19,444 nucleotides of DNA. Source: Candidatus Babeliales bacterium. GTDB taxonomy: Bacteria; Babelota; Babeliae; Babelales; Vermiphilaceae. Shown in pieces: positions 1,620-18,432 of this stretch. The notes beneath the pieces are model-generated. The model saw only the letters and a list, made by a program, of their open reading frames with translations. It did no database searches and was not told the origin of the DNA. The translations under genes and the position numbers were made by a program. The stretch lies in NCBI GenBank assembly GCA_044451405.1, contig JBIOKB010000019.1, positions 1-19,444 on the forward strand, given 5' to 3'. Position 1 is the stretch's first letter, and each line of letters starts with the position of its first letter.

Positions 1620-2429
1620 TTAGGTCGAGATATAGACTATTAAGAATTCCTGCGCCAGCACATAGATAATAGCCCCGATGGCCAGGAATGGCCCGAAGGG
1701 GATCTTGGTATCTTTCTTTGATCCACTGAGCAGAATGTAGCCAATACCAATAAGGGATCCGAGTACTGACCCTATGCACAAGGCTACCCAGCTGCCAATA
1801 ATGCCCGTAAATGCTCCGATAAAGGCTAACAGCTCAACATCCCCCTGGCCGATGCCAATCTTGCCCGTAGCTTTATAAAAAAGCCAGGAAATAGCATACA
1901 AAAAGCCTGCGCTTACAAAAATTCCTAGGATGCTATCTGAAAGCGTAATAGGCAGATACCCGAGTGCACTTGCTCCAATACCGAGTGGTATCAAAAAGAG
2001 GGTAACAAAGCGGGAGATGAGCATGGTTTCAAGATCTGAGCGGATGGTAACGATTAATGCAGAAAAGAAGATGAAGTAGGTGGGAAAATAGATGAGGGGA
2101 ACCATCGCATAGAGTAGTGACATAACTAGAACAGTGAGCACTTCAATGAAAGGGTAGAGTGGTGAAATGCGCGCTGTGCAATATCTGCAATGGCCATGCA
2201 GTATAACATAAGAAAGTACGGGGATGAGATCGTACCACGCGAGTGTGTGTTTGCATGATGGGCAGCGTGAGCGGGGCTTTACCACACTTTCATCACGCAT
2301 GAGGCGGTAACTAAGCACGTTTAAAAATGAGCCCCAGCAGGCGAAGACAGGCGTTAGCCAGACGTAGCCTAGGTGGAACTTCGACGTTATTCCAGCGTAG
2401 GCGAAGACTGGTACTAAAAATAGCACCAT
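1620..2429 (-). CDS. pilD: Prepilin peptidase (A24A, PilD-like) with an apparent 20-aa N-terminal insertion
   Basis: GSFLNV..YRL start, CPSC and CRYC zinc motifs, catalytic Asp motifs (SDLE, GQGD), IPFGPFL C-terminus. ATG directly abuts the rbfA stop. Confidence 0.92.
   Translation of the reverse strand: MVLFLVPVFAYAGITSKFHLGYVWLTPVFACWGSFLNVLSYRLMRDESVVKPRSRCPSCKHTLAWYDLIPVLSYVILHGHCRYCTARISPLYPFIEVLTVLVMSLLYAMVPLIYFPTYFIFFSALIVTIRSDLETMLISRFVTLFLIPLGIGASALGYLPITLSDSILGIFVSAGFLYAISWLFYKATGKIGIGQGDVELLAFIGAFTGIIGSWVALCIGSVLGSLIGIGYILLSGSKKDTKIPFGPFLAIGAIIYVLAQEFLIVYIST
2358..2411 (-). repeat. Palindromic element, family A, inside the prepilin peptidase CDS
   Basis: CCAGTC-TTC-GCCTA-N26-TAGGC-TAC-GTCTGG (54 nt), with an additional TGGAA/TTCCA stem in the interior. 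Confidence 0.8.
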
Positions 2430-2810
2430 TTACTTTTCCTCGTCTGTAGTTTCTACGGACTTAACCGTATCAAGTAAGTTTTCAAGCTTGAGTTGCTTTT
2501 CAAACTGCTCATCAAATTTAAATACTAAATCGGGGGTATAGCGAGCATCCATAATTTTAGCTATGGCAGCACGCATGGATGGTTTGTAGAGAATCAGAAC
2601 TTTTAGGATTTCTTTAAAATAATCTTGTCCGCGTGGGGAGTAAAAATAGATAACGCACATACTTTTACTATCTGATAAACTGACGCGATTAATAAAAGTA
2701 TCCGCGATGCGTGAATCATCAAGGGAGATTTGCATTAATAATTGTGAAATGGAACGCATCAAAAGAGATTCTTTTTGGGCTCTTTTGATGCTGCTAACTC
2801 TGTTTGACAT
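2430..2810 (-). CDS. rbfA: Ribosome-binding factor A
   Basis: 126 aa; DSRI...INRVSLS.S and RYTPDLVFKFD match the RbfA pattern. Confidence 0.9.
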   Translation of the reverse strand: MSNRVSSIKRAQKESLLMRSISQLLMQISLDDSRIADTFINRVSLSDSKSMCVIYFYSPRGQDYFKEILKVLILYKPSMRAAIAKIMDARYTPDLVFKFDEQFEKQLKLENLLDTVKSVETTDEEK

Positions 2811-2830
2811 CTATGATTCTTAACGGAGCG

Positions 2831-3043
2831 TTAGACGTGTTTTTGTGAAGCAAGGCGCATAAGATTTTGCTTAATTGCGCGCACTAAGCGTTTACGTCTT
2901 TTTTGTGTAGGTGGCTCAAAGTAGACGGTACGTTTCATGTCACGAACAACACCTTCCCGTTCAATCTTCTTTTTAAGCTGACGGAGTGCTTTTTCAATGT
3001 TCGTGCTTACATGTACTTCGATATTAGATTTTCTTTTTGACAT
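2831..3043 (-). CDS. rpsU: 30S ribosomal protein S21
   Basis: IEKALRQLKKKIEREGVVRDMKRTVYFEPPTQKRRKR is the bS21 signature. Start set at ATG 3043 (70 aa, GAAGG upstream). Confidence 0.95.
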   Translation of the reverse strand: MSKRKSNIEVHVSTNIEKALRQLKKKIEREGVVRDMKRTVYFEPPTQKRRKRLVRAIKQNLMRLASQKHV

Positions 3044-3120
3044 GCGATTATATCGCCTTCTTTCGAAAAAATCGGTTAAAAATAATAAACAGTGCGCACT
3101 AAAGCGCACAACTTGTACCT

Positions 3121-3148
3121 ATTCTAGCAATTTAGCCCTCAATGTCTA
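3121..3148 (-). promoter_or_regulatory. Putative sigma70 promoter for rpsU-rbfA-pilD
   Basis: TAGACA-N16-TAGAAT with TGn extended -10. Confidence 0.5.
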
Positions 3149-3160
3149 GAGGAGCTTACT

Positions 3161-3245
3161 TTCAAGGAGAACAAGACCCCCCGTTCGTCCTGAGCCTGAC
3201 GAAGGATACGAACGGCCTAGTACATGATGTTCAAGGAGAACAAGA
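3161..3245. repeat. Perfect 16-bp direct repeat pair TTCAAGGAGAACAAGA (3161-3176, 3230-3245)
   Basis: Exact match at 69-nt offset, bracketing a palindrome and the stop codon of the 3217-4638 gene. Confidence 0.9.
3181..3215. repeat. REP-like palindromic element, family B (35 nt)
   Basis: CCGTTCGT...ACGAACGG 8-bp outer stem with TCCT/AGGA inner stem; GC-rich, no U-tract, 1 nt from the stop codon. Confidence 0.75.
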
Positions 3246-4638
3246 GCGTACCGCTATTAAATGCCCGCTGCTGCTTGAATGGCAACTGATACAGGAACCC
3301 AAGAGAGAAATCAGGGGAAATATCATAATTAAGGTCAAAATTAAACACTTGAACGGTAAAATCAGACTTACATTCAAGAAGTTCAGGTAAAAAGGAGGGG
3401 TCAGAGGTTTTAGGGGTAATTTTGTCTTCTTTATGTTTTATAATCACATACTGCACATAGCAGGAAAGCCGTTCTAAAAAGTGATAGGCGCTCATTTTTG
3501 CCCCAAAGTGCCAGTTATCCCCCGGTTGGATGCTTGCTGACGTAGCAAATGGATAGATGCCGCTTTGGCAGTTGCTGGTAGGGATGTGTACATTGCAAAA
3601 ATCACGCTTGAAAAAATGATCAAAGCCGCCTTCAATCCCCAGTTCAATTGATTGGGCAAAATCAACATCAAAACCACCCGTAAAGCCAAGCGCATGGTGG
3701 GAGTTGCTGCCAAAAGAGATATCAAATGCTTTGTTGTAATGGCGCTCTTTGCCAGCGGCTACGCTTCCTTCAATAAAGAGGAACGGTGTAAATAAAAATA
3801 TGGGCCACTCTTTGCGCTCGCGATTAATGGGGAACGCATGGCGCCAATATAATGTTGCACGGATATCTTCTACTGATGAAGTATCAAAGGTACACATCTC
3901 AAAGTTAATTTCATTGGTGATGGTTTGCACGTTTTGCATGAGCGTGCCGTTAACATTTGTTTTGGTGAGGTTAGGGTTAGTCGGATCAGGAGTGAAGGTG
4001 GAATTGGGGGTTAAATTGAGTAAATTAACCGGTGCAAAATAAATATTGGCAACACCGGTCTGCAATTTAAGACCAATGTCGCACAGTAGCTGCAGATCAA
4101 ATTCAAAACGGACGCCACGTTTACGATATTTCATAGGAATAGTAAAAAAACCAAACTGCTGGCTAGGATCAATAGCAAGCGTATCATCTATTGGTGTGCC
4201 CAGCGGAACCATGGGGAACAACGTTTGACGTGCTGCGAGCAAGCTTGGTGGTAACGTTTGTCCTGTTGGTGTTGGCCCAAAGAGTAATGCAATCATGTCC
4301 CAGCGGCCACCAATATCGCCAAGTTGTATTGTTTGGTAATTAGGCGTAATGCTATCATCAGTAGCTAATGAAAAGATATTGTGGTTTCCAGCATTTCTCG
4401 CATTTTGACCAAAGGGAGAGACGCTAAAATTAACGCGTTCTGATCTATCTGCATCGGGTGTTAATCCCATGAATTTAAGTTTGTCGCGGGTGTATAAAAA
4501 TTCATGAGGATCAAGTGTGTTGTAGATGGGAAACGGATCTTGTCGTGAATAGCTGGTCATTCCATAAACGTGGGCACTTGAGAAGGTTAAAAGCGCGCAC
4601 ACTAACGTACATAACGATCGCAACATGGTATGTGCCAT
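3217..4638 (-). CDS. Exported hypothetical protein, probable outer-membrane beta-barrel (473 aa)
   Basis: Signal peptide, many alternating-hydrophobic strands rich in Gly and aromatic residues, C-terminus LLFSLNIMY resembling a beta-signal. Confidence 0.65.
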   Translation of the reverse strand: MAHTMLRSLCTLVCALLTFSSAHVYGMTSYSRQDPFPIYNTLDPHEFLYTRDKLKFMGLTPDADRSERVNFSVSPFGQNARNAGNHNIFSLATDDSITPNYQTIQLGDIGGRWDMIALLFGPTPTGQTLPPSLLAARQTLFPMVPLGTPIDDTLAIDPSQQFGFFTIPMKYRKRGVRFEFDLQLLCDIGLKLQTGVANIYFAPVNLLNLTPNSTFTPDPTNPNLTKTNVNGTLMQNVQTITNEINFEMCTFDTSSVEDIRATLYWRHAFPINRERKEWPIFLFTPFLFIEGSVAAGKERHYNKAFDISFGSNSHHALGFTGGFDVDFAQSIELGIEGGFDHFFKRDFCNVHIPTSNCQSGIYPFATSASIQPGDNWHFGAKMSAYHFLERLSCYVQYVIIKHKEDKITPKTSDPSFLPELLECKSDFTVQVFNFDLNYDISPDFSLGFLYQLPFKQQRAFNSGTLLFSLNIMY

Positions 4639-4677
4639 TACCTGAATCCTTTCTTTGCATTCAAAACTATGGATACA

Positions 4678-4707
4678 GATATAGCACCTTTAACGCAGCA
4701 ACGTCAA
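4678..4707 (-). promoter_or_regulatory. Putative sigma70 promoter
   Basis: TTGACG-N18-TATATC with TGn before the -10. Confidence 0.3.
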
Positions 4708-4730
4708 TTGCCTATATTAAGCGGTTATTT

Positions 4731-6200
4731 TTATTCATGTAATAATGCAATGCACTTGGCTTTTCCATCACCAGTAATTTCTGATTCTTGTGCATAAGTG
4801 CTTGCTTTTTTGCCACTGGCATCAACTAGATTTGTATCAGCTCTGTGTTGTAAGAGAAGTTCAACAACTGCAGGATGTGCTTGATCAGCTGCACGCATTA
4901 ATGCCGTAGTTCCTGCTGTTTCTTCAATGTATTCAGCTTTCCCGCCTTGGAAACGGTAACGTTTTCCTCCTGCTCGTGGATCACGTACTCTAAAGCGTCG
5001 ATTAATACTATGCTGAGTTGAATATGTTGTTTGTGCATTAACGGCAGCAAAAGTATTGGCCTGTAATAGTAATGCTACAACTTCTGGTGATCCTTGTTCA
5101 GCAGCAAGATGAAGTGGGGTGGTACCATGTTCGTCGCACATCGGAATGAGAGCGAATGTATTTTTTGGATGAGGCATAATAAGCGTAGCATTGTGTTTAA
5201 GTAAATATTCCACTGCTTGTTCGTTGCCACATTGCGCTGCATAATGAAGGGCTCGTTTGCCATTTGAGTTTGAAATGTTAGCCCTGCAACCACTTTCAAG
5301 AAGATGTAATACTCTTCGTGCCATTGGATCTGTTGCGCATGCTTCACATGCATCAAGGAGTTCTTGATCATCAGCATATGCATATTCTGCTACTAATTTA
5401 CCTAGTGGACGTGGGAATTGGGTAACATCACAAATTGCGATCATCTCGTGTTTAGGTGCTATCATGTCGCGGATGGCGCGTAATGTATCTTTGTGCATAC
5501 CTTTTACTTCACATAATTCGACAACCGTTTTTCCATTGCGATCTTTTATATCTGTACGCGCTCCGTGTTTTAGTAAGAGCTCAACTGCTGGTATATAACG
5601 ATTACCAGCACGAGGTTTTCTTAAAGCGTTTGTTACTGCTATATGAAGTGGTGTTTGAGATATTGTATCTCTCGTAGCATATGAGGAAGGATAATCCCAT
5701 GTATGCGTATTAACATCAGCTCCAGCATTAATAAGCTGTTCTACTGCATAAATATCATGTATTCCACGGGTAATTCCGCATGCAAGGTGGTGTTGCCAAC
5801 TTTCTGGGTGTTGTGCTTGTAGATGCTTGACAATACAATCTAATATCGCAGGATTGATTCCCTTTTGCGCTGCCTCATAACAATTTTCTTCAAGAAGTAC
5901 ATAAGGACCAAAAGCAGTAAGCAGAAACTGTAGCATTTCTACATGATTATGCTTAATCGCGTGACCAAGAGAACGATAGACATCAGAACTATGTTCTTTT
6001 GCTGCGTCAGCTACAATTGCTGCATTTTCGGCGCATAATTGTTGTACTTGTGTCAGGTTATTATTTGTAACATAGTATTCTAGATCGGATGTAAATTGAT
6101 GCTTTGGTGGTAAACCGGTGAATCTATACCCCATGCCATGTATTGAGCCTGCTATCAGGAACCCAAGAAGGGCCAGCGTGTGTAGTAGTGAAACTTTCAT
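4731..6200 (-). CDS. Exported ankyrin-repeat protein with a central F-box-like motif (489 aa)
   Basis: Signal peptide ending IHGM, AGGAGG RBS, ankyrin consensus repeats (TPLHIAV, ALHYAA, TPLHLAA, TALMRAA, LL..GA.VN). Confidence 0.92.
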   Translation of the reverse strand: MKVSLLHTLALLGFLIAGSIHGMGYRFTGLPPKHQFTSDLEYYVTNNNLTQVQQLCAENAAIVADAAKEHSSDVYRSLGHAIKHNHVEMLQFLLTAFGPYVLLEENCYEAAQKGINPAILDCIVKHLQAQHPESWQHHLACGITRGIHDIYAVEQLINAGADVNTHTWDYPSSYATRDTISQTPLHIAVTNALRKPRAGNRYIPAVELLLKHGARTDIKDRNGKTVVELCEVKGMHKDTLRAIRDMIAPKHEMIAICDVTQFPRPLGKLVAEYAYADDQELLDACEACATDPMARRVLHLLESGCRANISNSNGKRALHYAAQCGNEQAVEYLLKHNATLIMPHPKNTFALIPMCDEHGTTPLHLAAEQGSPEVVALLLQANTFAAVNAQTTYSTQHSINRRFRVRDPRAGGKRYRFQGGKAEYIEETAGTTALMRAADQAHPAVVELLLQHRADTNLVDASGKKASTYAQESEITGDGKAKCIALLHE

Positions 6201-6242
6201 ATATCCTCCTAAATATTTTTCAATTTAATCATATTATTACTA

Positions 6243-6270
6243 ATAGTAACAAATTCATAAAATATCGCAA
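6243..6270 (-). promoter_or_regulatory. Putative sigma70-type promoter for the ankyrin gene
   Basis: TTGCGA-N16-TACTAT with TGn extended -10. Confidence 0.45.
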
Positions 6271-6330
6271 CCGGTGATTTTTTAGGGTAAAATGAGCATA
6301 TTTAACCAGAAATGTTACCAGGAATTACCC

Positions 6331-6582
6331 ATGTCCTATTGTGCCTATTACCAAGCCCAGGTTGAGCGTTCCCGCTCTCTCTTTTTAGTTGCCCTGTTGC
6401 GCAGCTATGAACACGTATCATTTGACCGTACCCTTGATGTGCCAAATAGTATCTTTGAGTTTTATGTTCCCGAAGATCAGGAAGAGAGCTTTTTAGGTAT
6501 TATGCATGCCCTTGAGCAGGAAGGGATCATTCAACATCTGAATAAATTACCCAATCGCTTAATCACCGAAGAACTTTATTAA
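6331..6582 (+). CDS. Small hypothetical protein, DUF4911-like (83 aa)
   Basis: LLRSYEHVSFDRTLD...FEFYVP pattern recalled as DUF4911-like. AGGA upstream of ATG 6331 favours this start over 6292. Overlaps the gltX 3' end by 20 nt. Confidence 0.6.
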   Translation: MSYCAYYQAQVERSRSLFLVALLRSYEHVSFDRTLDVPNSIFEFYVPEDQEESFLGIMHALEQEGIIQHLNKLPNRLITEELY

Positions 6583-8005
6583 TTCGCGCGTCTACTTCTT
6601 GAATGCCGAGCATAACAATAAGATCAGCAATAGAAGGGCCTTCAACTTCTTCCATGAGCATTAAACGTAAGAATGTATACAGATCTTTTAATGCAATCTT
6701 TTTTTCTTTAGCAGCAGTTTTAAGATTAGTTAAGAACGTGTCTGCATTAGTGTGCAGTAACGGACGGTGTTCAAGAACGAGCGCTGTAATATCTTCTACA
6801 ACGTTTGGCGTCATATGGTTTGCAATATCATGCTTGGTCAGTGCGGGCACATTAAAATAAAAATGGAGCGCGTTGGTAACTTCAGTGAGTGTTGTAAGAT
6901 CAGTTTTAATAAGTTGGATGAGCTTAGTAACGATTGTGATATCCATAGTTGTTACTGCTGGATATGCTTTTTCTAAAAAGGGCAGGCAGTAGGCAGTTAA
7001 CGTAGCTGGTTCAAGACGATTAATCCATTTATGATTAAGCCACGTTAATTTTTCAACATCATACCGAATTTGGCCAGTACTATGAATGGCATCAAAATTA
7101 AGTGCCGCAATAAGTTCTTCTCGCGACATAATTTCATGCTCAAAGGTGCCACCACCAATAATTGCTAAATAGTTGCACAGCGCTTCAGGTACAAAGCCGC
7201 CATCACGTAAATCTTGCAATGAAAATCCAAAATCACGTTTAGATAGTTTTTTACCATGAATGTTAAATAAAATAGGTAAATGCCAGTAGGTTGGTAACGG
7301 TGTTTTAAATGCTTGAAAGAGTGCAGCTTGGCATGCAGTATTAGTTAAATGATCTTCCCCACGTATGATGAGGTTCATCTTCATGAGCATATCATCAACA
7401 AAATTAGCAAAAATAAAGGTGACGGTGCCATCTTGGCGTGTTAAGGGGAAATCAGAAAAATTTTTGTAATCAAAGGCAATTGAACCATGAGCAAGGTCAG
7501 TGATAGTAACCTGCGCATTTTGATCTAATTTCATGCGCCAGATAAACGGAATGCCGTTGGCTAGTTTATCTTCAATAACCGATGCCGATAAGTTTGCACA
7601 CGTGCGATCATAACGTGGCGGCAACTTAAGATCCATTTGGCGTTGGCGCTTTTTTTCTAATTCTTCTACGGTGCAAAAACAGCGATATGCGTCATGCTGT
7701 GCTTGTAATTCACGGAGCTTTTCTTGATAGATATTTTCCCGCTCTGATTGGATATATGGCCAATATGGGCCACCAACATCCGGACCTTCATCATGGGTGA
7801 TACCAAGCCAGGCAAGATCCTGTATAATTTGTTTGCCTTGCGGATCATAATTGCGTTGTTGGTCAGTGTCTTCAATACGGAGTACAAACGTTCCGCCTTT
7901 TTGTCGCGCAAAGAGATAATTCATTAACGCGGTGCGCACATTACCTAAATGCATAAGACCAGTGGGAGCAGGAGCAAAACGGACACGTAAGGAGGCTTTA
8001 TTCAT
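6563..8005 (-). CDS. gltX: Glutamate--tRNA ligase
   Basis: RVRFAPAPTGLMHLGN (HIGH), LRIEDTD, IIRGEDH, KLSKR (KMSKS), full-length anticodon-binding domain. Confidence 0.97.
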   Translation of the reverse strand: MNKASLRVRFAPAPTGLMHLGNVRTALMNYLFARQKGGTFVLRIEDTDQQRNYDPQGKQIIQDLAWLGITHDEGPDVGGPYWPYIQSERENIYQEKLRELQAQHDAYRCFCTVEELEKKRQRQMDLKLPPRYDRTCANLSASVIEDKLANGIPFIWRMKLDQNAQVTITDLAHGSIAFDYKNFSDFPLTRQDGTVTFIFANFVDDMLMKMNLIIRGEDHLTNTACQAALFQAFKTPLPTYWHLPILFNIHGKKLSKRDFGFSLQDLRDGGFVPEALCNYLAIIGGGTFEHEIMSREELIAALNFDAIHSTGQIRYDVEKLTWLNHKWINRLEPATLTAYCLPFLEKAYPAVTTMDITIVTKLIQLIKTDLTTLTEVTNALHFYFNVPALTKHDIANHMTPNVVEDITALVLEHRPLLHTNADTFLTNLKTAAKEKKIALKDLYTFLRLMLMEEVEGPSIADLIVMLGIQEVDARINKVLR

Positions 8006-8056
8006 TGACCAATTCCTAAAGCAATGGGGACTATGCCATCTGAAATATAATTCTTT

Positions 8057-8084
8057 ATTTTACTTATAATACGTACTAAGTCTA
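8057..8084 (-). promoter_or_regulatory. Putative sigma70 promoter for gltX
   Basis: TAGACT-N16-TAAAAT upstream of ATG 8005. Confidence 0.35.
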
Positions 8085-8095
8085 GGTAGGAACTT

Positions 8096-8125
8096 TTGAC
8101 ATGGTAAGCTCCATTTTGTTACCTT
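8096..8125 (+). promoter_or_regulatory. Putative sigma70 promoter upstream of the structured leader and acylphosphatase
   Basis: Consensus TTGACA (8096-8101), N18, TACCTT preceded by TGn. Confidence 0.5.
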
Positions 8126-8174
8126 CTTCCCCGTAGTAATGAACCCAGTCTGGTGTGCATGAGCACACTAATTT

Positions 8175-8216
8175 GCTTATCCGGGCTCTCAAGCTCGGTA
8201 GGCTACGGCGGGCAAG
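8175..8216 (+). repeat. Palindromic element, family A, left arm truncated
   Basis: GCTTA-N19-TAGGC-TAC-GGCGGGCAAG; shares TAGGCTACG with the 2358-2411 copy; interior hairpin CCGGGC/GCTCGG. Confidence 0.55.
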
Positions 8217-8272
8217 TATGTGCTAGAAGCGCTTACTTGGCACAAAAAAAAAGGAGTAAGGAGTGAGGGGCA

Positions 8273-8554
8273 ATGATCAAATGTCTTAAAATTGTTATGT
8301 CAGGTTCTTTTCCTGACGGGTTTGCGCGAGAATTTATTCAAAAACATGCACGCAATTTAGATCTTGAAGGAATTGCGCAAGCATTACCGGATGGTACCAT
8401 TCGGGTTCTGGTCTGCGGTCTTAAAGATCCGGTGGATCATTTTCTTGATGCGCTCCATAAAGGAGAGGGGAAGGTGATACCTGAAATGGTTGAGGTTGAG
8501 CCGTTTGTTAAGGATAGGGATTTTAGAGGGGTGTTTAGGGTCCTCGAGGGATAA
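8273..8554 (+). CDS. acyP: Acylphosphatase-family protein with degenerate active site
   Basis: 93 aa; LEGIAQALPDGTIRVLVCG fits the acylphosphatase fold pattern, but GxVQGVGFR reads GSFPDGFAR. Confidence 0.7.
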   Translation: MIKCLKIVMSGSFPDGFAREFIQKHARNLDLEGIAQALPDGTIRVLVCGLKDPVDHFLDALHKGEGKVIPEMVEVEPFVKDRDFRGVFRVLEG

Positions 8555-8559
8555 GCGTT

Positions 8560-8585
8560 AAGAGGTGTTGTGCGGTACACCTCTT
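8560..8585. other. Intergenic hairpin
   Basis: 9-bp perfect inverted repeat AAGAGGTGT / ACACCTCTT after the acyP stop; no U-tract, so a terminator role is uncertain. Confidence 0.5.
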
Positions 8586-8650
8586 CAAAAACCTCAATTA
8601 TGCTATGCTAATGAGCATTAATTCATCCATTTTTTGCTCACTTGGTATAC

Positions 8651-11539
8651 ATGCACCGTTTGTTTCTTTATATAATCACATGCACATATTTTTTAACGGT
8701 ATCAGCAACACCAGCTGATACCATCATTTATATTTCAGCACATGATGATGGTGCTGCGTGTATCACCAAGCACATCAGTGAGCCTTTTTATCTTGAAGAA
8801 TTAACGTGGGAAAGTGATGCACAGATGCAATCATCTGAATTTAAGTATTTAGTTGATATTGCTGAGCATGCGATGGTGAGTCCAGAGGATCTGGTACGAG
8901 CAGTTACGTATTTACATAAAAAAAATAAATTTGAGCGCATTGTGCTTACCCTACAAGGTCCGAATGATAAAAAAGAACTACACATGGAATTGGAGGCGGC
9001 GTGGACGTTTAAGCGGCTGAAGTTGCACGGTTTTATGCTTGGTAAAGAAGCGTATCGCCATTGCTATGGATTAGAACCAGGTGAGCGATTTGATAAAAAA
9101 AAGCATGAGCATGGGATTGCTGCAATTAAACAAGCATTACATGATCAAGGCTATGTGCATGCGCAGGTGACCACAACCTGTGATTATGATGATATCAATA
9201 AATCGGTAACGGTGCATGTAACGCTTGCTCGAGGAGCATGCTATACGTTTGGAGCATTACACGTTGTGGTACAGGCAGACAAGCAGGTTGAGCCGCACGA
9301 ATATGAGTATATGCGCGTGCAGTTGGGCAAAAAGGCCCGCGCATTAGTGGCAAAACAACCGTATACACAAGAGAGTCTTGCAACTATGGTGCAGCGGTTG
9401 CGCCGATTTTTAGCTGAGCAAGGATTTTTGCATGTGTCTCTTGATACGCAAGAACAGATTAATCATCACAAAGAAACGGTTGATCTTACTATAACCGTAG
9501 ATCTTCATCGCAAAAAAGAGTGTGTATTTATGGGTAACCATGATATTACCCGTGAAGAACTCTTTGACGCGCTCTTATTATTTGGTGACGCACTCTGGAT
9601 GGTTCCTGCTTCTATGATTCAAGAAGAACTTACGCAGGTGTATCACGCACGTGGTTTTTTGCAGGCACACATTCAAGTACATGAAGATGAAACGCATTAT
9701 ACCTGCATTATCGATGAGGGCGAGCGGGCACATATTGATGCCATACGCTATAATCATGTGCAGTGGTATAACCATGATCACCTCACTACTACTTATGGTA
9801 GTAAAGTGCTTAATCACTATTATGATGAACAGGTCGTACAACAATTTGTGCATGATGTCATAAGCGCATATATCCGTGATGGGTTTTTAGATGCACGCAT
9901 GGTAAAAACAAGCTGTATTGCTCATCCTACACAACCTGACCATTACACACTTTCATTAACTATTGATGAAGGGAATCAAGCCCATATTGCATCAACAACG
10001 CTTGATCAATTTCCTGAGCTGAGTAGTCGCGCGCCATTTGTTTCTGATACACAGCTTGTATGTACGCAACACCAGTTAGAGGAGCAGCGTCTTTTTTTGC
10101 TCGAGCATTGTCATCAGGCAGGGTATTTGAAAGCGCAGATTAATCCTGAATTACGCCGTGTAGGAACTGATGTCCATGTACATTGGAAAGTTCAACTGCA
10201 ACCTGATACGCGCACCTTTGGTAAGACGATTTTGGTAACTGATACTAACTTTCCTTTTGAATATATTACACGAGAATTGCGCTATAACGAGGGTGAAGTT
10301 TGGGATGATTATAAAGTACAAGAATCCCTTGAGCGCTTAAAAGCCTTAGATATATTCGAGTCGGTTCATCTGTATCCAGCAGTGGGCTCTCGGCAGCAGG
10401 GCGAGCAGCCCATGATACTCAAAGTATATGAAGATGATCCGTATGAACTGCGAACCCGGCTTGGATTTGGTCTTCAAAACGTTGACCCGCGATTAAAATT
10501 TGCAGGGGTTACCTATATTATTGGTGCTACTGCTCTTGCGCGTAACGTAGGTAATCATGCAGGAGTTGTTCAGGCAGATGTCGATATCACTCGCTTGCAG
10601 CGCAACTTTCAACTCCGGTATGTACGCCCGTGGCTTTTTAATAAACCGATAAAAACAGAGCTGCAAGGATATAGTAACCACTACTGGCAGCCCGGTTTTG
10701 TAGGTATTCGCACCAAGTTGTATGAAGTGGTACAACATGGATTCTTGCTTGAACTCACCCGTTTTATTAATACCATACGGTTAGGTCTTGTGACCGGTAT
10801 TGATGGGGTTAAAACAGTTATGTCATCTGATGAGCGGATAAATGCATATGCCGCAAAAATTGCCCACGCCATTAACTTTAAACCCCGATTGATTGATAAA
10901 ACCGTAGCCTATTTAATTGTACAACCTACCTTGGTAGCCAATTATGTTGATGATAATTTAAATCCGCGCCAGGGTTCATTAACCGTTGCTACGCTCAAAG
11001 GAGTAATACCGCTTAATCGGCGCCATGAGGTGCCGCCATATCTTAAAGTTCTGTTAGAGCAATCATTATTTATCCCCGTTGACCCGCTGGTTATTGCATT
11101 CCGTGCACGTGTCGGGCATATTTTCCGTGCCGATTTTAGTAGCCTTATGCCCAATGATCGTTTTTACTTAGGCGGGGCAAACTCGATACGCAGCTATGAA
11201 TCAGATTTATGCCCTCCGGTGGGTATTTTTGAAAATGATAAAGGGAGAAAGCAAGTAGTACCGCAGGGGGGTAAAACGATGGCTAATATTAACGTTGAGC
11301 TACGCTTTCCCTTGCTGTATAAAAACATGAGCGCGGTGGCTTTTCAGGATTTAGGGATTCTTTCGAGCAATAAGCTCACTAAAATACATGCTAAAAATAT
11401 ACTTGCTGCTACGGGCTTTGGCTTGCGTTTAAATACCCCTATTGGCCCGTTACGCTTTGATATAGGGTGGAAGTGGAAGTGTGATGACCTGTACACGCAT
11501 AACTATGCGTGGTTTTTAACATTCGGCAACGCGTTTTGA
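8651..11539 (+). CDS. Omp85-family outer-membrane assembly protein (TamA/BamA-like) with multiple POTRA domains
   Basis: Signal peptide from ATG 8651 (alternative TTG 8642), repeated POTRA-like GY/GF..A.V motifs, DRFYLGGANSIRSY, GFGLRLNTPIGPLRFDIG, terminal FGNAF. Confidence 0.92.
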   Translation: MHRLFLYIITCTYFLTVSATPADTIIYISAHDDGAACITKHISEPFYLEELTWESDAQMQSSEFKYLVDIAEHAMVSPEDLVRAVTYLHKKNKFERIVLTLQGPNDKKELHMELEAAWTFKRLKLHGFMLGKEAYRHCYGLEPGERFDKKKHEHGIAAIKQALHDQGYVHAQVTTTCDYDDINKSVTVHVTLARGACYTFGALHVVVQADKQVEPHEYEYMRVQLGKKARALVAKQPYTQESLATMVQRLRRFLAEQGFLHVSLDTQEQINHHKETVDLTITVDLHRKKECVFMGNHDITREELFDALLLFGDALWMVPASMIQEELTQVYHARGFLQAHIQVHEDETHYTCIIDEGERAHIDAIRYNHVQWYNHDHLTTTYGSKVLNHYYDEQVVQQFVHDVISAYIRDGFLDARMVKTSCIAHPTQPDHYTLSLTIDEGNQAHIASTTLDQFPELSSRAPFVSDTQLVCTQHQLEEQRLFLLEHCHQAGYLKAQINPELRRVGTDVHVHWKVQLQPDTRTFGKTILVTDTNFPFEYITRELRYNEGEVWDDYKVQESLERLKALDIFESVHLYPAVGSRQQGEQPMILKVYEDDPYELRTRLGFGLQNVDPRLKFAGVTYIIGATALARNVGNHAGVVQADVDITRLQRNFQLRYVRPWLFNKPIKTELQGYSNHYWQPGFVGIRTKLYEVVQHGFLLELTRFINTIRLGLVTGIDGVKTVMSSDERINAYAAKIAHAINFKPRLIDKTVAYLIVQPTLVANYVDDNLNPRQGSLTVATLKGVIPLNRRHEVPPYLKVLLEQSLFIPVDPLVIAFRARVGHIFRADFSSLMPNDRFYLGGANSIRSYESDLCPPVGIFENDKGRKQVVPQGGKTMANINVELRFPLLYKNMSAVAFQDLGILSSNKLTKIHAKNILAATGFGLRLNTPIGPLRFDIGWKWKCDDLYTHNYAWFLTFGNAF

Positions 11540-11550
11540 GCTTTGCGAAA

Positions 11551-11604
11551 CCCTTCGAAGCCTTTACATCTTTTGCTTATCTTCGTAGGGAAGGCGTAGT
11601 AGGG
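11551..11604 (-). repeat. Palindromic element, family A, intergenic
   Basis: Minus strand CCCTAC-TAC-GCCTT-N26-AAGGC-TTC-GAAGGG (54 nt), same geometry as 2358-2411. Confidence 0.8.
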
Positions 11605-11633
11605 CTAAAATCCCAATTTTAGCTTTATTTTTT
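11604..11633 (+). terminator. Possible intrinsic terminator after the Omp85 gene
   Basis: GCTAAAAT / ATTTTAGC 8-bp stem followed by TTTATTTTTT; the stem is AT-rich. Confidence 0.5.
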
Positions 11634-11713
11634 GTGAAAAAGATTTAATGTATTAGATAATCAACGTATAACCTTTCCGTAAATGGACATAGGGACACCC
11701 ACAAGGAGTTTTA

Positions 11714-12409
11714 ATGGATACTCATTTTAACGATGAACAACATTATCATGAGCACGGACATTCACTAATACAAGAGATTATGTACCATCTGCCGTATGCT
11801 ATTTTTTCAGTAGCATTTGGGCTAGCGGCACTGAGTTTTTTGGTTTATCAGGCATTTTTAGCAGGCGCTACTGATGATTCAATCTGCAATGGCTCTGAGG
11901 TCCTTTTTCACAGTTTCCATTTTATGCATATTGTATTTGCCGCTACAGGTACCGTGCTTACGTACTTTAGATTTTCAAAGAACATATTCAAAGGACTGTG
12001 CACCGGAGCATTATGCGCGTCTTTCTTTTGTACTTTGTCAGATGCTATTTTGCCGTATATTGGTGGTACATTAATGGGCGTGCATATGCATTTGCATCTT
12101 TGCTTTGTAACAGAACTCCATAACATTCTTCCTTTTTTATTTGTAGGTCTTTTAAATGGATTTTTATTGAGCCGTCACCATGAGTCAAAACAAGCCCTTT
12201 ATTCTCTTTTTTCCCATTTTATTCATATTTTGATTAGCTCATTTGCTTCTATTTTTTATTTGGTATCCCAGGGATGTACCAATTGGTATACCAACATAGG
12301 CATAGTATTTCTATTTTTAGTTGTTGGGGTTGTAGTACCGTGTACGTTATCTGACGTGGTCGTACCTATGGCATTTGCACGGGTGGGTAAAAAACATGCG
12401 AAGCATTAA
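11714..12409 (+). CDS. His-rich polytopic membrane protein with internal duplication (231 aa)
   Basis: AAGGAG RBS, about 6-7 hydrophobic segments, two HFxH and two CTLSD motifs; overlaps the potA start. Confidence 0.8.
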   Translation: MDTHFNDEQHYHEHGHSLIQEIMYHLPYAIFSVAFGLAALSFLVYQAFLAGATDDSICNGSEVLFHSFHFMHIVFAATGTVLTYFRFSKNIFKGLCTGALCASFFCTLSDAILPYIGGTLMGVHMHLHLCFVTELHNILPFLFVGLLNGFLLSRHHESKQALYSLFSHFIHILISSFASIFYLVSQGCTNWYTNIGIVFLFLVVGVVVPCTLSDVVVPMAFARVGKKHAKH

Positions 12410-13553
12410 AATAGAACATGTTAAAAAGTCATTCCATGGGGAACTGATTCTTGAGAATCTTAATCTTACCATTCCCAGTGGTAAGTTTTTTGCTTTGTTA
12501 GGTCCAAGTGGAAGCGGTAAAACCACCGTATTGCGTCTTATTGCAGGGTTTGAACAACCAGATGCAGGCCGTATTTTTTTGGGCAATCATGATATTACCA
12601 TGATGCCTATTAATGAGCGGCGCATTAATACCGTATTTCAACATTATGCATTGTTTCCGCACATGAATGTGTTTGATAATGTTGCGTATGGATTGCGTAT
12701 CAAAAAAGTTCCGCATGATGTGATTGAGCAAAAAGTAGTAAAAATATTACGTGCCGTGCATTTAGAAAAACAGATTTATAAATCGATTCACCAGTTATCC
12801 GGTGGCCAACAACAACGGGTAGCATTAGCACGCGCTATTGTTAATGAGCCTGAGGTATTGCTCCTTGATGAACCGCTGGCAGCACTTGATGTTAAATTGC
12901 GTGAGGCCATGCTTTTGGAATTAATTGAATTGCAAGATACGTTAAAAACAACGTTCGTATATGTAACGCATGATCAGCTTGAAGCGCTTACCGTAGCAGA
13001 TTATATGGCTATCATGAATCAAGATGGTGAAATTGAACAAGTGGGTACGCCAAAAGAAATTTATGAATTTCCGGTGTCATCATTTGTTGCAACGTTTGTT
13101 GGTTCTACCAACTTATTCCAAGGGACCTTGCAGTTACAGGATGGTTCACCAAAAATAGAGGTGCCTGGATTAGGCTTGTTTGAAATTTCGCTCCATAAAA
13201 ATCCGTCCCTCTTCGTTCTTACTAACGAAGCAAAACCTCAGGAAGTGTTAAACTTCGCCGGACTAAAGAGAGATTGGGTTACTGAAGGGCGGCGTATCGT
13301 GATGAGTATACGTCCTGAGAAATTTGAGATCAGCAAACAACCATTGCAGGGATTTTCTAACTGTTTAAAAGGTACGGTTAAATCAATTGTGTATCATGGT
13401 CGGTCTACCCAATATAATGTACGGTTATCTAATGATATGATCGTGCAAGTATTTGAACAAAATGAGGAGCATTTCCCTCAAGAAGTAATCGATTATGATG
13501 ATACGGTGTATTTGTACTGGCAAAAAGAAAATGTGGTGTTATTAGAGCGATGA
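12396..13553 (+). CDS. potA: Spermidine/putrescine ABC transporter ATP-binding protein
   Basis: Walker A GPSGSGKT, VFQHYALFPHM, LSGGQQQRVALARA, LLLDEP, C-terminal TOBE-like region. Start set at ATG 12396. Confidence 0.93.
   Translation: MRSIKIEHVKKSFHGELILENLNLTIPSGKFFALLGPSGSGKTTVLRLIAGFEQPDAGRIFLGNHDITMMPINERRINTVFQHYALFPHMNVFDNVAYGLRIKKVPHDVIEQKVVKILRAVHLEKQIYKSIHQLSGGQQQRVALARAIVNEPEVLLLDEPLAALDVKLREAMLLELIELQDTLKTTFVYVTHDQLEALTVADYMAIMNQDGEIEQVGTPKEIYEFPVSSFVATFVGSTNLFQGTLQLQDGSPKIEVPGLGLFEISLHKNPSLFVLTNEAKPQEVLNFAGLKRDWVTEGRRIVMSIRPEKFEISKQPLQGFSNCLKGTVKSIVYHGRSTQYNVRLSNDMIVQVFEQNEEHFPQEVIDYDDTVYLYWQKENVVLLER
13202..13262 (+). repeat. Palindromic element, family A variant, inside the potA CDS
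   Basis: TCCGTC(CCTC)-TTC-GTT-N33-AAC-TTC-GCCGGA, with alternative perfect stem CTTCGTT/AACGAAG (13211-13230). Confidence 0.55.
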
Positions 13554-14401
13554 AACATGAACTAAAACAATTAGTACAACAAGAAATAGCGTGGTTTTTG
13601 GCAGTTCCTGCTTTTTTATGGCAGCTGCTGTTTTTTTGTATCCCGTTGCTCTTTATCCTCGTATTGAGTGTTGTTGATGATACGTATCAGATAACTACCG
13701 CACACATCGCTTCCGTTATTAATGGTGAATCGGCACATATTATTATTCGTTCATTATGTCTCGCGTTAGTAAATGCCTCGTTGTGTGCAATTATTGCCTA
13801 TCCACTTGCGTATCATCTTGTGTTTAACGTTATCCGCTGGCGTACTACGCTCCTCTTTTTTTTAATGTTGCCTTTTTGGACTAATTTATTGGTTCAAGTA
13901 TATGCATGGTTTTTTCTCCTTGATACGTATGGGATGATTAATACGATACTCCTTTCATTGGGCATGCTGTCTAAACCACTCCATATGCTTAATACACCGT
14001 TTGCCGTGTATCTGGTGATGATATTTTATTACCTTCCCTTTATGGTAATGCCCCTCTATGCAAGTTTAGAAAAATGTGATCGGCGCTTATTTGAAGCGTC
14101 AGCTGATTTGGGTGCAACGCCGTGGGAAACATTTATACGGGTAACACTTCCCTTATCGCTATCAGGAATTAGAACCGGATTTTTTCTCGTATTTGTTCCT
14201 TCGTTTGGTGAGTATGTAATTCCGATGCTTATGGGCGGTGGTAAACAATTGTATGTTGGTTCATTAATTTCACACTATTTTTTAGTAGTGAAAGATGCTC
14301 ATGTAGGAGCGGCATTTACCTGTGTAACGGGCGTTGTTCTTTTAGTAAGCGCATTGATTATGCTCTTTCTCTTTAAACAAAAAGTAGTAAAAGGAGGGTA
14401 A
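13550..14401 (+). CDS. potB: Polyamine ABC transporter permease
   Basis: LPFWTNLLV, EASADLGA (EAA loop), GEYVIPMLMGG; ATGA overlap with potA. Confidence 0.92.
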   Translation: MKHELKQLVQQEIAWFLAVPAFLWQLLFFCIPLLFILVLSVVDDTYQITTAHIASVINGESAHIIIRSLCLALVNASLCAIIAYPLAYHLVFNVIRWRTTLLFFLMLPFWTNLLVQVYAWFFLLDTYGMINTILLSLGMLSKPLHMLNTPFAVYLVMIFYYLPFMVMPLYASLEKCDRRLFEASADLGATPWETFIRVTLPLSLSGIRTGFFLVFVPSFGEYVIPMLMGGGKQLYVGSLISHYFLVVKDAHVGAAFTCVTGVVLLVSALIMLFLFKQKVVKGG

Positions 14402-14402
14402 T

Positions 14403-15200
14403 ATGGGACGTTTCATGCGCTCAAAGAGTGCTTCCTATTATACATTAACTGCATGTGTAGCTGCAGCATACATTTTCTTATACATGCCCATTATTATTTT
14501 GATTCTTTTTTCCTTTAATAATTCTTTATTTCCGTATGCATGGAAAGGATTTACTCTGCGCTGGTATGCAGCGTTATGGGAATCAACTGAAGTGTGGGAT
14601 GCGCTCAGAAATTCAGTTATAGTGGCGTTTTCCGCAGTTTTTTTAAGTGTTACGTTTGGTGTGTTGGTGGTGTATTACAGTAGTCGCAGCTTTTTAGCGC
14701 GATTGCTCATTATTTTTTATGGGACGTTGGCGGTGCCAGAAATTGTTATTGCAGCAGGTCTGCTCAGTGTTTTTGTAGGCATGTTTGTTCCGCTCGGTCT
14801 TACTACCTTAATTGTTGCCCATACGCTCTTAGGGATTGGCTATGTTATACCACTGGTGCACACGCGCTTTGCTGAGCTTAATTATGCACTGACTGAAGCA
14901 TCATTAGATTTAGGTGCTACCCGCACACAAACATTTTTTACTATTATTTTACCGCTCCTTTCGCAAGTAATTATTGCAGCATCATTATTAGTTTTTGTTA
15001 TTTCACTGGATGATTTTTTATTGGCCTTTTTCTGCGCTGGTGCTACCACACAAACATTGCCTATGTATATTTTTTCTATGATTCGTTCAGGAGCAACTCC
15101 GTTGGTTAATGCACTGTCAACGGTACTTTTATTAATAAGCTCGTTGCTCGTACTTATTTTTTCATCATTAAATGTTAAAAAAGCGGATATGTTGTCATGA
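14403..15200 (+). CDS. potC: Polyamine ABC transporter permease
   Basis: FLYMPI..LILFSFN, GFTLRWY, EASLDLGA, SLDDF, TLPMYIFS. Confidence 0.92.
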   Translation: MGRFMRSKSASYYTLTACVAAAYIFLYMPIIILILFSFNNSLFPYAWKGFTLRWYAALWESTEVWDALRNSVIVAFSAVFLSVTFGVLVVYYSSRSFLARLLIIFYGTLAVPEIVIAAGLLSVFVGMFVPLGLTTLIVAHTLLGIGYVIPLVHTRFAELNYALTEASLDLGATRTQTFFTIILPLLSQVIIAASLLVFVISLDDFLLAFFCAGATTQTLPMYIFSMIRSGATPLVNALSTVLLLISSLLVLIFSSLNVKKADMLS

Positions 15201-16249
15201 TGGAACTGCGTGTACTCACTATGCGTATTACTATGGTTGGCGTGTGGCTTGTAGCTTTTGCTGCATGGTTATATGCGCCATTGTTATTTCAGCGTTGGCA
15301 GCGTACGCAAAGTTTAAACATATTGATATGGCCGACCATGCTGGACGCAAAAAAACTTGCAGAGTTTGAACATAACACCGGCATAAAATTATATATCAGC
15401 TACTATGAAAGTAATGATGAATTAGTGCGTAAATTACGGGTGACCAAGGGAGCGCAGTATGATCTTGTTATAGCCGCTGATACGGCAGTACACGCACTCA
15501 TACAGGAGAAGTTAGTGCAACCAATTGATACCAACAAGCTGTCATTTTATAGCGATGTGCGTCCGTGGTTGTTGCATCATTATTTTGATCCGAACAATCG
15601 CTATTCAGTTCCCTATTACATGAGTATGTATGGGCTTGGTATTGATCGGCGTTATTTTAAAGAGCTCCCGTCAGCAAGCTGGGCACTGTTGTTTGAAAAT
15701 AACGGATATCGAATTACCATGACCGATGATCCGCGTCGAGCGCTATTAATAGCAGCTAACTATCTGTTTGGATCATTTGATGATCTTGATAACCCAGAGC
15801 GTATAGCAGATATTAAGCATCTATTATTGCAGCAAAAAAAATGGGTTGAACTATATAGTGATATTCGTGGAGAAGAAGTATTAGCAGCACAAAGTTGTCC
15901 GGTAGCATTAACGATTAGTTCAGATTTAACACGTGTGCAGCGGGAATACCCAACCTTGCAGTTTTTGATTCCGCAAGAAGGCACGTTTATGACCATTGAT
16001 TCCTGCATTATTCCGGTAGCAACCTCTAAACAGGAGTTGGTATATCAATTGCTTAATGTTATCTACCAACCTGATATGATTCGCTATCATGCTGATAAAT
16101 ATGGATTTTGTCCGCCACTAAAAAGTGTGGCACCCGCTGAACATATTATATGTCCTGATGAACAGCAATTGAAACAGATAGATTTTTTTAGAAATGTAGT
16201 TCCCAAAGATGTGATTGATAAACTTTGGGTAGCAGTTATGGCCCATTAG
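15197..16249 (+). CDS. potD: Polyamine ABC transporter substrate-binding protein
   Basis: FEHNTGIK...YYESNDEL, YDLV, FDPNNRYSVPY, SWALLF, IPQEG; N-terminal hydrophobic anchor; last gene of the operon. Confidence 0.88.
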   Translation: MMELRVLTMRITMVGVWLVAFAAWLYAPLLFQRWQRTQSLNILIWPTMLDAKKLAEFEHNTGIKLYISYYESNDELVRKLRVTKGAQYDLVIAADTAVHALIQEKLVQPIDTNKLSFYSDVRPWLLHHYFDPNNRYSVPYYMSMYGLGIDRRYFKELPSASWALLFENNGYRITMTDDPRRALLIAANYLFGSFDDLDNPERIADIKHLLLQQKKWVELYSDIRGEEVLAAQSCPVALTISSDLTRVQREYPTLQFLIPQEGTFMTIDSCIIPVATSKQELVYQLLNVIYQPDMIRYHADKYGFCPPLKSVAPAEHIICPDEQQLKQIDFFRNVVPKDVIDKLWVAVMAH

Positions 16250-16265
16250 TATCTACGTGACCCAG

Positions 16266-16313
16266 CCGTCGCCTGCAACAGAATAACTATGCAGTTTAAC
16301 TTGGCTATGGCGG
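16266..16313 (+). repeat. Palindromic element, family A variant, intergenic
   Basis: CCGTC-GCC-N29-GGC-TAT-GGCGG with one-sided TAT bulge; interior TGCA/TGCA stem. Confidence 0.65.
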
Positions 16314-16365
16314 GCTACGGAACTGATGAGGCAAGGGTTAATTTAGTTACGAGAAAGTATGCATT

Positions 16366-18294: not shown

Positions 18295-18331
18295 CACTTT
18301 CTTCCCCTTAAAATCACCTATAATTGACCAT

Positions 18332-18359
18332 TTGCAAATATATGTAAGCCTGATATGAT
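18332..18359 (+). promoter_or_regulatory. Putative sigma70-type promoter for the WD40 gene
   Basis: TTGCAA-N16-TATGAT with TGn extended -10. Confidence 0.5.
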
Positions 18360-18365
18360 TAAGAG

Positions 18366-18390
18366 TACCCTATAAAAATAGGGTATTTTT
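18366..18390 (+). terminator. Terminator-like hairpin between metG and the WD40 gene
   Basis: TACCCTAT / ATAGGGTA 8-bp stem followed by TTTTT. Confidence 0.45.
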
Positions 18391-18432
18391 AATCTATTCC
18401 TTAGGGAAACTGGGGAATTAAAAAGGAGTGTT

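Follow-up and report, generated by a model that had tools for sequence, protein, structure and literature searches.

The window analysed here, 19,444 nucleotides of contig JBIOKB010000019.1 from a Candidatus Babeliales genome assembly (GCA_044451405.1), contains five short, imperfectly palindromic DNA elements, and all five are members of one dispersed repeat family. With a probability of roughly 0.6, we take them to be non-autonomous mobile DNA hairpins of the Babeliales, similar in kind to Rickettsia palindromic elements (RPEs) and repetitive extragenic palindromes (REPs), and with a preference for the 3' ends of tRNA genes. A first-pass annotation of the same DNA had proposed as much in outline—a REP/RPE-like family of mobile or protein-recognised hairpins, non-autonomous, with no mobilising enzyme in the window—and shuffled controls, covariation and orthologous sites all support that core inference. 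The window is contig C19 of a genome of 1,023,543 bases in 89 contigs (40% G+C, 95.7% complete). The five sites are these:

Site 1, 2352-2411, minus strand: 60 nt, a 54-nt hairpin followed by the 6-nt tail CTAACG; in frame in pilD (codons 7-26), where it encodes PVFAYAGITSKFHLGYVWLT.
Site 2, 11545-11604, minus strand: 60 nt, subfamily C, intergenic, 5 nt past the bamA stop codon.
Site 3, 13203-13268, plus strand: a 66-nt subfamily A insert, in frame in potA, where it encodes PSLFVLTNEAKPQEVLNFAGLK.
Site 4, 16262-16320, plus strand: 59 nt, subfamily E, intergenic between potD and metG.
Site 5, 8145-8213, plus strand: a full-length composite in the divergent spacer between gltX and the acylphosphatase gene.

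The letters of the hairpins are as first given at all five sites, and one copy does run antisense to its surroundings: site 2 opposes both adjacent genes. Several boundaries change. Site 3, placed at first at 13202-13262, is a 66-nt insert occupying 13203-13268, and site 4, parsed at first from 16266, begins at 16262 and reads CCAGCC/GTC/GCC...GGC/TAT/GGCGGG. Site 5 had been called truncated; it starts at 8145 and is complete, with a 24-nt mini-hairpin standing in for the 5' loop. It consists, in order, of the outer arm CCAGTC, the nested mini-hairpin, an interior of subfamily D, TAC as the 3' loop and the outer arm GGCGGG. Two sister composites, the trailer of tRNA-Thr(cgt) on C4 and C2:9726-9812, align with it over its whole length, and plain D copies align with it over their right two thirds.

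A strict descriptor (a 6-nt outer stem with at most one mismatch, TTC, TAC or TAT on both sides, a 5-bp inner stem, and N26) has three matches in the 1.02-Mb genome: sites 1 and 2, and C5:3160, which is plainly homologous. Slightly relaxed descriptors add C2:8823, C44:5166 and C29:9892, making six seeds in all, and an nhmmer profile iterated from these seeds recovers 44 copies from the whole genome at E<1e-3 and 47 at E<0.05. When the genome was shuffled ten times with its dinucleotides preserved, the same profiles had no match at E<0.05. An alignment of 28 copies served to build a covariance model (R1), which yields 65 matches at E<0.05 (68 with the cutoff raised to E<=1), the best of them at 5e-17, and these copies are dispersed singly across 39 contigs. 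The genome-wide excess over shuffled sequence that the first-pass annotation anticipated is therefore real. Its further proposal, that the family is defined by structure and not by sequence, has to be given up: a sequence-only profile recovers 47 copies, the motif C-T-W-C-G is near-invariant, and the interiors form discrete subfamilies.

Individually, sites 1 to 3 match strongly: site 1 at E 1e-8 by nhmmer and 4.7e-8 by the covariance model, site 2 at 5.2e-9 and 7e-10, and site 3 at 9.2e-8 and 3.7e-14. Site 4 is weak by profile (nhmmer E 0.02, covariance model E 0.225), and shares 48 of 61 aligned columns, both arms included, with the copy at C32:7436. Site 5 is missed by both the nhmmer profile and the covariance model; its alignments to other copies are those given above. 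Folding each copy alone is uninformative for family membership. Only site 1 beats shuffled sequence (z -2.75); the other sites range from z -2.1 to +0.15, with site 2 near -1 and site 4 at 0, and site 3 takes a fold other than the one claimed for it. These unremarkable energies at four of the five sites, together with a first descriptor that had been adjusted site by site, are what can be said for a chance resemblance among unrelated local hairpins. Against ten empty shuffled genomes and 47 real copies, covariance-model E-values down to 5e-17, homologous copies in other genera, and no match in any of five outgroup genomes, we give that explanation practically no weight.

The complete unit is about 35-87 nt in length, mostly 53-63 nt, with cores of 46-81 nt. 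It begins with the 5' arm of an outer stem of six positions (CCNNNC/GNNNGG), in most copies with a mismatch at position 5. Between this and an inner stem of 3 bp or more lies a symmetric 3x3 internal loop whose closing pairs, C-G and G-C, are invariant; the inner stem carries an exchangeable apex of about 3 nt to more than 40 nt. After the 3' arm comes a tail of 6 nt that mostly reads CTNNCG. For 28 copies, the RNAalifold consensus comprises four pairs, one unpaired position, one pair, the 3x3 loop and the inner stem; it is the design of outer stem, internal loop, inner stem and variable interior that had been read from the five sites. Stem sequences were said to vary from copy to copy while remaining paired, and this too is borne out. 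In the 28-copy alignment the share of stem cells that pair is 93.3%, where column shuffles reach 79.0%, and double-sided changes occupy 38 cells, against 13.7. Neither the observed score nor the observed percentage paired is reached by any of 500 column shuffles, and shifting the stem partners by one column cuts pairing to 41-52%. None of 224 cells displays a one-sided change of the G-U type, which, read cautiously, suggests that what is selected may be a DNA hairpin able to form on either strand.

Across 66 copies, the pairs that flank the loop are essentially fixed (outer pair 6 is C-G in 66 of 66, inner pair 1 is G-C in 65), and others alternate: outer pair 3 is CG in 35 copies, AT in 15 and TA in 2; outer pair 4 is GC in 31 and TA in 13; and inner pair 3 is TA in 40 and CG in 23. 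Outer position 5 is non-Watson-Crick in 45 copies (T.C in 27, T.T in 8, A.A in 7), so that the mismatch reported at a fixed outer-stem position proves to be usual in the family. On the 5' side the loop reads TTC in 36 copies, TAC in 18 and GTC in 5, and on the 3' side TAC in 36, TTC in 19 and TAT in 7. Both arms thus read C-TWC-G, a direct repeat inside the inverted repeat. Positions 3-6 of the unit belong to the outer stem, where all but position 5 are in base pairs; they read CGTC in 11 copies, CCTC in 11, TGTC in 2 and AGTC in 11, and 27 of the 66 copies start with CCA.

The interiors, described at first as variable, sort instead into about five conserved subfamilies, two of which (A and D) are near-identical in other genera. 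The sorting was done by crude pattern rules, and the subfamilies may be summarised as follows:

Subfamily A: 62-63 nt; includes site 3.
Subfamily B: mostly 57 nt; site 1 has the B-type GGAATAAC...TCGAAGT interior, and the pattern rules filed it under A.
Subfamily C: about 60 nt; site 2 is C-type by eye, and the pattern rules gave it no class.
Subfamily D: 53 nt; includes site 5.
Subfamily E: GTC/TAT loops, five copies, divergent; includes site 4.

Relatives also contain minimal units of 35-37 nt in which the inner stem closes on a few bases. An alternative fold of subfamily A into two hairpins, pairing CTTCG with the interior CGAAG as RNAfold does for site 3, was considered and rejected by eye, because copies with a TAC loop retain CGAAG, and so nothing compensates for the change.

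Evidence that the units insert comes from genes. In PotA, residues 277-298—22 residues, PSLFVLTNEAKPQEVLNFAGLK, nt 13203-13268—are missing from all nine aligned orthologues, which are 70-79% identical to it (a tenth locus, L056, has a stop within the range and was left out of the alignment). The AlphaFold model of PotA, which is a weak one (10 sequences; mean confidence score, pLDDT, of 61.5), places a coil of low confidence (pLDDT <50) at residues 276-299, with a confidently predicted strand on either side. For PilD, rbfA lies directly upstream of the gene in 13 of 13 related loci. From the first start codon to the conserved WGSFLN-type motif there are 8-18 residues in 11 of these (8-12 where that codon is ATG, as in four of them) and 30 in the window; one of the other two lacks a start codon within its open stretch, and the other has a 446-nt spacer and a longer open frame. 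Deleting the 20 residues of site 1 returns PilD to the common form. Comparison of orthologous loci, put forward earlier as a way to recognise insertion, thus reveals it in both genes. In TruB, alignment to human TRUB1 (PDB 8jfx) has a 16-residue gap exactly at the copy. Further copies lie within the MutL linker, PheT and a methyltransferase domain, and others in the C-terminal tails of a secretin (on the opposite strand), a rhodanese and a C39 peptidase. By crude open-reading-frame (ORF) calls, 15 of the 66 copies are in genes, 12 of them on the coding strand, and six (those in PotA, PilD, TruB, MutL, PheT and the methyltransferase) are in identified conserved proteins. The other 51 occupy the approximately 11% of the genome that is non-coding.

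Copies have also entered other copies. At C24:5612-5698 a D copy sits within an A copy, between ...CCTC and AGGA..., with no duplication, which shows that the unit moves as a whole, including its tail; a second nested composite, D-type within an A-type interior, occurs at C2:35097-35179. Together, these comparisons show that whole units insert, in spacers in both orientations and in frame in housekeeping genes, and that in-frame copies are tolerated as an extra loop of about 18-22 residues.

The units also have a striking preference for the tRNA 3' end, a feature that the first-pass annotation does not mention, and stand there in the orientation of the tRNA. At 11 of the 35 tRNA genes called by ARAGORN, a covariance-model match on the same strand begins at the encoded CCA, such that the first three bases of the unit are the CCA of the adjoining tRNA. 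Three more tRNA ends (Thr-cgt, Ser-gct and Lys-ctt) were seen by eye to have a composite, a half or a disrupted copy. Past a tRNA-linked unit CCAGTCT or CCAATCT usually recurs, often followed by a run of T. In other genera, six of 11 best-hit loci are likewise at a tRNA CCA. Inspection by eye of tRNA-Arg(cct) in 28 genera found a family-type hairpin starting from the CCA in ten, its interior being of type A, of type D or minimal according to genus; three genera have a simple perfect hairpin that embeds the CCA, ten have none, and in five the gene call lacks a terminal CCA. The differing interiors point to turnover of the occupant rather than simple inheritance, and tRNA gene ends are, we conclude, a conserved hot spot whose occupant changes.

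The same facts sustain a serious rival for the tRNA-linked copies, namely that they are tRNA 3'-trailer hairpins with a function for the host. The encoded CCA would pair with a downstream TGG, the hairpin would act in processing, in 3'-end protection or in termination, and it would be inherited throughout the Babeliales, with copies elsewhere arising as by-products. Between 11 and 14 of the 35 tRNA genes have a copy exactly at the CCA and always in tRNA orientation, a regularity repeated at six of the 11 best-hit loci in other genera; some CCA-embedding hairpin, family-type or simple, was seen by eye at tRNA-Arg(cct) in 13 of 28 genera; a second CCAGTCT, often with a T run, follows the hairpin; and core and interior sequences are conserved across genera. 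Yet 52 to 55 of the 66 copies are away from tRNA genes, and those that are non-tRNA and intergenic favour neither orientation (19 along the upstream feature, 20 against it). Fifteen copies lie in genes by the crude ORF calls, six of these in identified conserved proteins; at tRNA-Arg(cct) ten of the 28 genera lack a hairpin altogether, and the interiors differ where one is present; only 14 of 66 copies have a run of four or more T within 15 nt downstream; and the stems are without G-U pairs. We therefore consider a host trailer function improbable as an account of the whole family, while giving it a real share of the probability. A plain intrinsic terminator was rejected on two of these counts, the T runs (14/66) and the orientations (19 versus 20).

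Several further observations concern the tRNA ends. At C29:9761-10318 five copies are found in about 560 nt around tRNA-Cys and tRNA-Leu(taa); the tRNA-Cys there is flanked on both sides by inverted copies, each with its 5' end facing the tRNA. The simple perfect hairpin mentioned above, CCAGTCATTTC-loop-GAAATGACTGG, starts from the tRNA CCA and is followed by CAGG, a second CCAG and a T run. It occurs at C27:11076 (tRNA-Ser tga), at C16:13986 (tRNA-Asp) and at loci L156, L158, L165 and L168, and so recurs behind different tRNA genes in several genera; it may be an ancestral trailer that gave rise to the arms of the element. Two odd ARAGORN calls, at C3:34504-34577 (undetermined anticodon loop) and C3:34746-34818 (tRNA-Ile aat), have no CCA end and are possibly false or degenerate tRNA genes.

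The family extends well beyond the window genome, which is the richest in copies. At E<=1e-3, R1 has matches in 27 of the 41 related genomes, divided by rank into 19 of 24 other genera in the same family and seven of 16 other families in the order. A phylum-wide sample of 151 genomes from 96 genera contains matches at E<=1e-4 in 65 genomes, representing 49 genera. Five genomes labelled Chlamydiae, Rhabdochlamydia, Parachlamydiales or Aerophobetes have no match at E<=0.01. Within the window genome, the median identity of a copy to its best partner is 82% and the maximum is 94.4%.

Several of these points weigh against the interpretation of the sites as mobile hairpins. No two copies are 95% or more identical, and there is therefore no sign of a very recent burst; the relatives compared are all of other genera, so that the comparison is made above the level of the strain. 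The interiors of A and D are nearly unchanged between genera whose PilD proteins are only about 50-60% identical, and this, like the fixed position at the tRNA CCA, fits a host function. The in-gene counts come from the crude ORF calls, and where a copy has been placed at an N-terminus (AlaRS, L9), the true start codon may come after it. The absence of G-U changes rests on few pairs. Finally, no mobilising enzyme was identified: the window genome (95.7% complete, in 89 contigs) has no match to Y1_Tnp or to RVT_1 (reverse transcriptase), and none of TnpB or IS110 type.

REP elements are associated with the RAYT (REP-associated Y1 transposase), and the first-pass annotation had suggested looking for such a link here. 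The evidence does not support it. Y1_Tnp is absent from the window genome and from the copy-rich relatives G001, G006, G016 and G017, although eight of the 41 relatives possess it; one of these, G038, has three Y1 genes and no element match. Six full-length Y1 loci were examined for elements within about 1-1.5 kb, and a single one has any, confined to one side of the gene; it is in relative G004 (contig C21), where a D-type copy is about 385 nt from the Y1 gene. A truncated Y1 fragment in relative G024 has no element nearby. That the elements are strict REPs mobilised by a RAYT is accordingly very unlikely. It agrees with that idea that they are palindromic, high in copy number and mostly extragenic, and that a TAC loop, found on the 3' side in 36 of 66, gives GTAG when read on the opposite strand, but this GTAG is internal, and is not a terminal unpaired tag.

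The window genome has two Xer-like tyrosine recombinases (Phage_integrase, about 310 residues) and two DDE_Tnp_1 genes, with no element at their loci, and no significant covariance-model match was found at two Y1, two IS110, two DDE_Tnp_1 and two tyrosine-recombinase loci (best E 0.15). Neither an upstream motif nor a target duplication was detected in the flanks of 55 non-tRNA copies, which exhibit a weak trend downstream towards CC and then T-rich sequence, and no target duplication was found at the potA insert or at the nested D-in-A insert. A classical miniature inverted-repeat transposable element (MITE) was rejected for these reasons: no duplication at potA or at the nested insert, no flank motif in 55 copies, and no significant match at the eight enzyme loci.

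Spread could also do without a dedicated enzyme, if microhomology to the 5' end of the element (CCAGTCT...) guided recombination or a switch of template during replication, the nascent strand jumping into a donor copy and back. A repeat of the unit's start past the unit, at tRNA genes and in pilD, would be compatible with homology-guided insertion or template switching. At tRNA-linked copies the element start (CCAGTCT or CCAATCT) recurs just past the 3' tail; C8:6697 has the idiosyncratic CCATGTCTT on both sides; and in pilD (2340-2411) a 12-nt near-repeat, identical at 11 of 12 positions, begins site 1 as CCAGTCTTCGCC and recurs directly past its tail as CCTGTCTTCGCC, so that PVFA is encoded twice in PilD. 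The lack of a transposase candidate in the window genome agrees with such a process. Most non-tRNA copies, including those at potA, the nested D-in-A insert, TruB and MutL, nevertheless have no repeat of this kind, and the 55 non-tRNA flanks offer only their weak downstream trend and no upstream motif. The near-invariance of C-TWC-G in the unpaired loops is also better explained by protein recognition than by template switching, and we regard the latter as an unlikely principal route.

For mobile hairpins of the sort we favour, the mechanism would be as follows. The element would fold as a hairpin of single-stranded DNA, and its C-TWC-G loop and mismatch would be recognised by an enzyme acting in trans, which would not be a RAYT encoded in the window genome. 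Insertion would leave no target duplication, and would be drawn to tRNA ends by the geometry of a stem plus CCA, or to sequence resembling CCAGTCT, the element's own 5' end. A bolder version, to which we attach a rather low probability, is that the unit is inserted exactly at the junction of discriminator and CCA by a host enzyme that recognises a 'helix plus CCA' in single-stranded nucleic acid once it has folded, a form of mobility free of any transposase. A tRNA-end-processing enzyme, or one of the Xer type, would be one possibility. The 5' arm of the element would then mimic, or derive from, a tRNA 3' trailer, and the element would supply the CCA of about one third of the tRNA genes.

Several known systems invite comparison. 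The attC sites of integrons are defined largely by how one strand folds, and have two stems, a central spacer left unpaired, a conserved unpaired or mismatched base and a terminal structure of very variable length. The present family resembles attC in this working mode, having two stems, an unpaired spacer, a mismatch and a variable apex, but its copies are single rather than in cassette arrays, its core sequence is different, and no integron integrase was identified among the genes here (the two Xer-like Phage_integrase matches were not subtyped). In one archaeon, a conserved palindrome lies 3' of about half of the tRNA genes and has been proposed as a maturation signal. It is linked to tRNA genes, as here, but is a simple spaced motif that does not overlap the CCA and is not dispersed elsewhere or in genes.

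RPEs are a close likeness. These, too, are short palindromic repeats in the reduced genome of an obligate intracellular bacterium, without an associated transposase, and their in-frame copies leave conserved housekeeping genes open; truB is a host gene in both, so far as the available part of the RPE literature describes. The hosts differ (Dependentiae here, Alphaproteobacteria for RPEs), as does the design, which here has two stems, a conserved 3x3 C-TWC-G loop and a modular apex. The Dependentiae elements also share the tRNA CCA exactly, for which the accessible portion of Di Nocera et al. 2013 (PMC3733652) has no counterpart among RPEs. The two families are set apart in this way by their descriptions, not by sequence comparison.

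The same paper, in the portion available, divides REPs into GTAG- and CGTC-tagged superfamilies, the latter including some Rickettsia RPEs and the Neisseria dRS3. As described there, the CGTC type has no dedicated transposase, a CCA 3' tail and copies within genes including truB, and consists of an unpaired terminal tag and a single stem of 8-9 bp, starting from two A-T pairs, with a loop of 4-5 nt. Judged by that partial account, our family is alike in having no transposase, intragenic copies in housekeeping genes and a recurring CCA. A tag-like CGTC, CCTC or TGTC occupies positions 3-6 in 24 of 66 copies, but inside the outer stem, with positions 3, 4 and 6 paired. The family departs from the single-stem design in having two stems split by the 3x3 loop and an apex of about 3 nt to more than 40 nt; its tail is CTNNCG, and its CCA opens the unit and often recurs past the tail. 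GTAG REPs, 20-40 bp long (PMC3733652), and the related REPINs are, in the sections available, thought to be recognised as folded single-stranded DNA (PMC2817692, PMC8266576, PMC3733652). On the evidence of these same sections, the elements resemble GTAG REPs as dispersed imperfect palindromes that are mostly extragenic (51/66 here) and non-autonomous. Their 53-63-nt units are longer, relatives having minimal forms of 35-37 nt; there is no terminal GTAG, the ends being CCN.../...NGG plus the CTNNCG tail; and the richest genomes have no RAYT, nor are Y1 genes flanked by elements.

A literature search, to which subscription-only papers and supplements were outside scope, found no description of such repeats in Dependentiae, and term searches of the Babela genome and TM6 comparative papers (PMC4378268, PMC4776705), in the parts available, likewise returned none. 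Selfish DNA inside protein-coding genes, classic for Rickettsia, is now seen also in an unrelated phylum of obligate intracellular bacteria, which suggests a convergent tolerance in reduced genomes. The sharing of CCA, with a modular apex on a C-TWC-G core, offers a sharply defined substrate for testing how repeats without a transposase move. If the helix-plus-CCA proposal were true, the family would be a bacterial, DNA-level counterpart of tRNA-linked repeats, kept across a whole order of intracellular parasites. There are practical consequences as well. The elements add loops of 16-22 residues to housekeeping proteins of Dependentiae metagenome-assembled genomes and blur the calling of start codons (pilD, AlaRS, L9), they probably contribute to assembly breaks (six copies are within 600 nt of a contig end), and the family could serve as a lineage marker for Babeliales.

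Among the potA comparisons, contigs with genes 67-74% identical to that of the window (L035, L042, L045, L049 and others) are titled 'uncultured Pseudomonadota', 'Verrucomicrobiae' and 'Acidobacteriota', titles that are probably not their true lineage. The genes of the window itself form an ordinary housekeeping set. A scan of the window found no tRNA genes, and no Rfam match at gathering score. Its long ORFs without a Pfam match are at 160-957, 869-1528, 3217-4638, 11714-12409 and 18318-18659, and its annotated genes are these:

1620-2429, minus strand: pilD, prepilin peptidase.
2430-2810, minus strand: rbfA.
2831-3109, minus strand: rpsU.
4731-6200, minus strand: ankyrin-repeat protein of 489 residues.
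6563-8005, minus strand: gltX.
8273-8554, plus strand: acylphosphatase gene.
8642-11539, plus strand: bamA.
12375-13553, plus strand: potA, with a product of 392 residues.
13550-15200, plus strand: two permease genes, following potA.
15197-16249, plus strand: potD, solute-binding protein.
16366-18294, plus strand: metG.

The mini-hairpin nested in site 5 belongs to a second repeat family:

8151-8174, plus strand: 24-nt mini-hairpin (pattern match at 8153-8168).

The pattern of this family, tgGTG[CT]GC-N3-9-GC[AG]CAC-tatttt, has 48 matches in the genome, against 0-2 in 20 mononucleotide shuffles; two are in the window (3092-3109 and 8153-8168) and 46 elsewhere. With its GC-rich hairpin of 6-7 bp followed by a T-rich run, it looks like an intrinsic terminator. 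Copies of it are nested in elements of the main family (site 5, C33:787, C8:4229, C2:32150, C4:22274 and C22:10581) or adjoin them.

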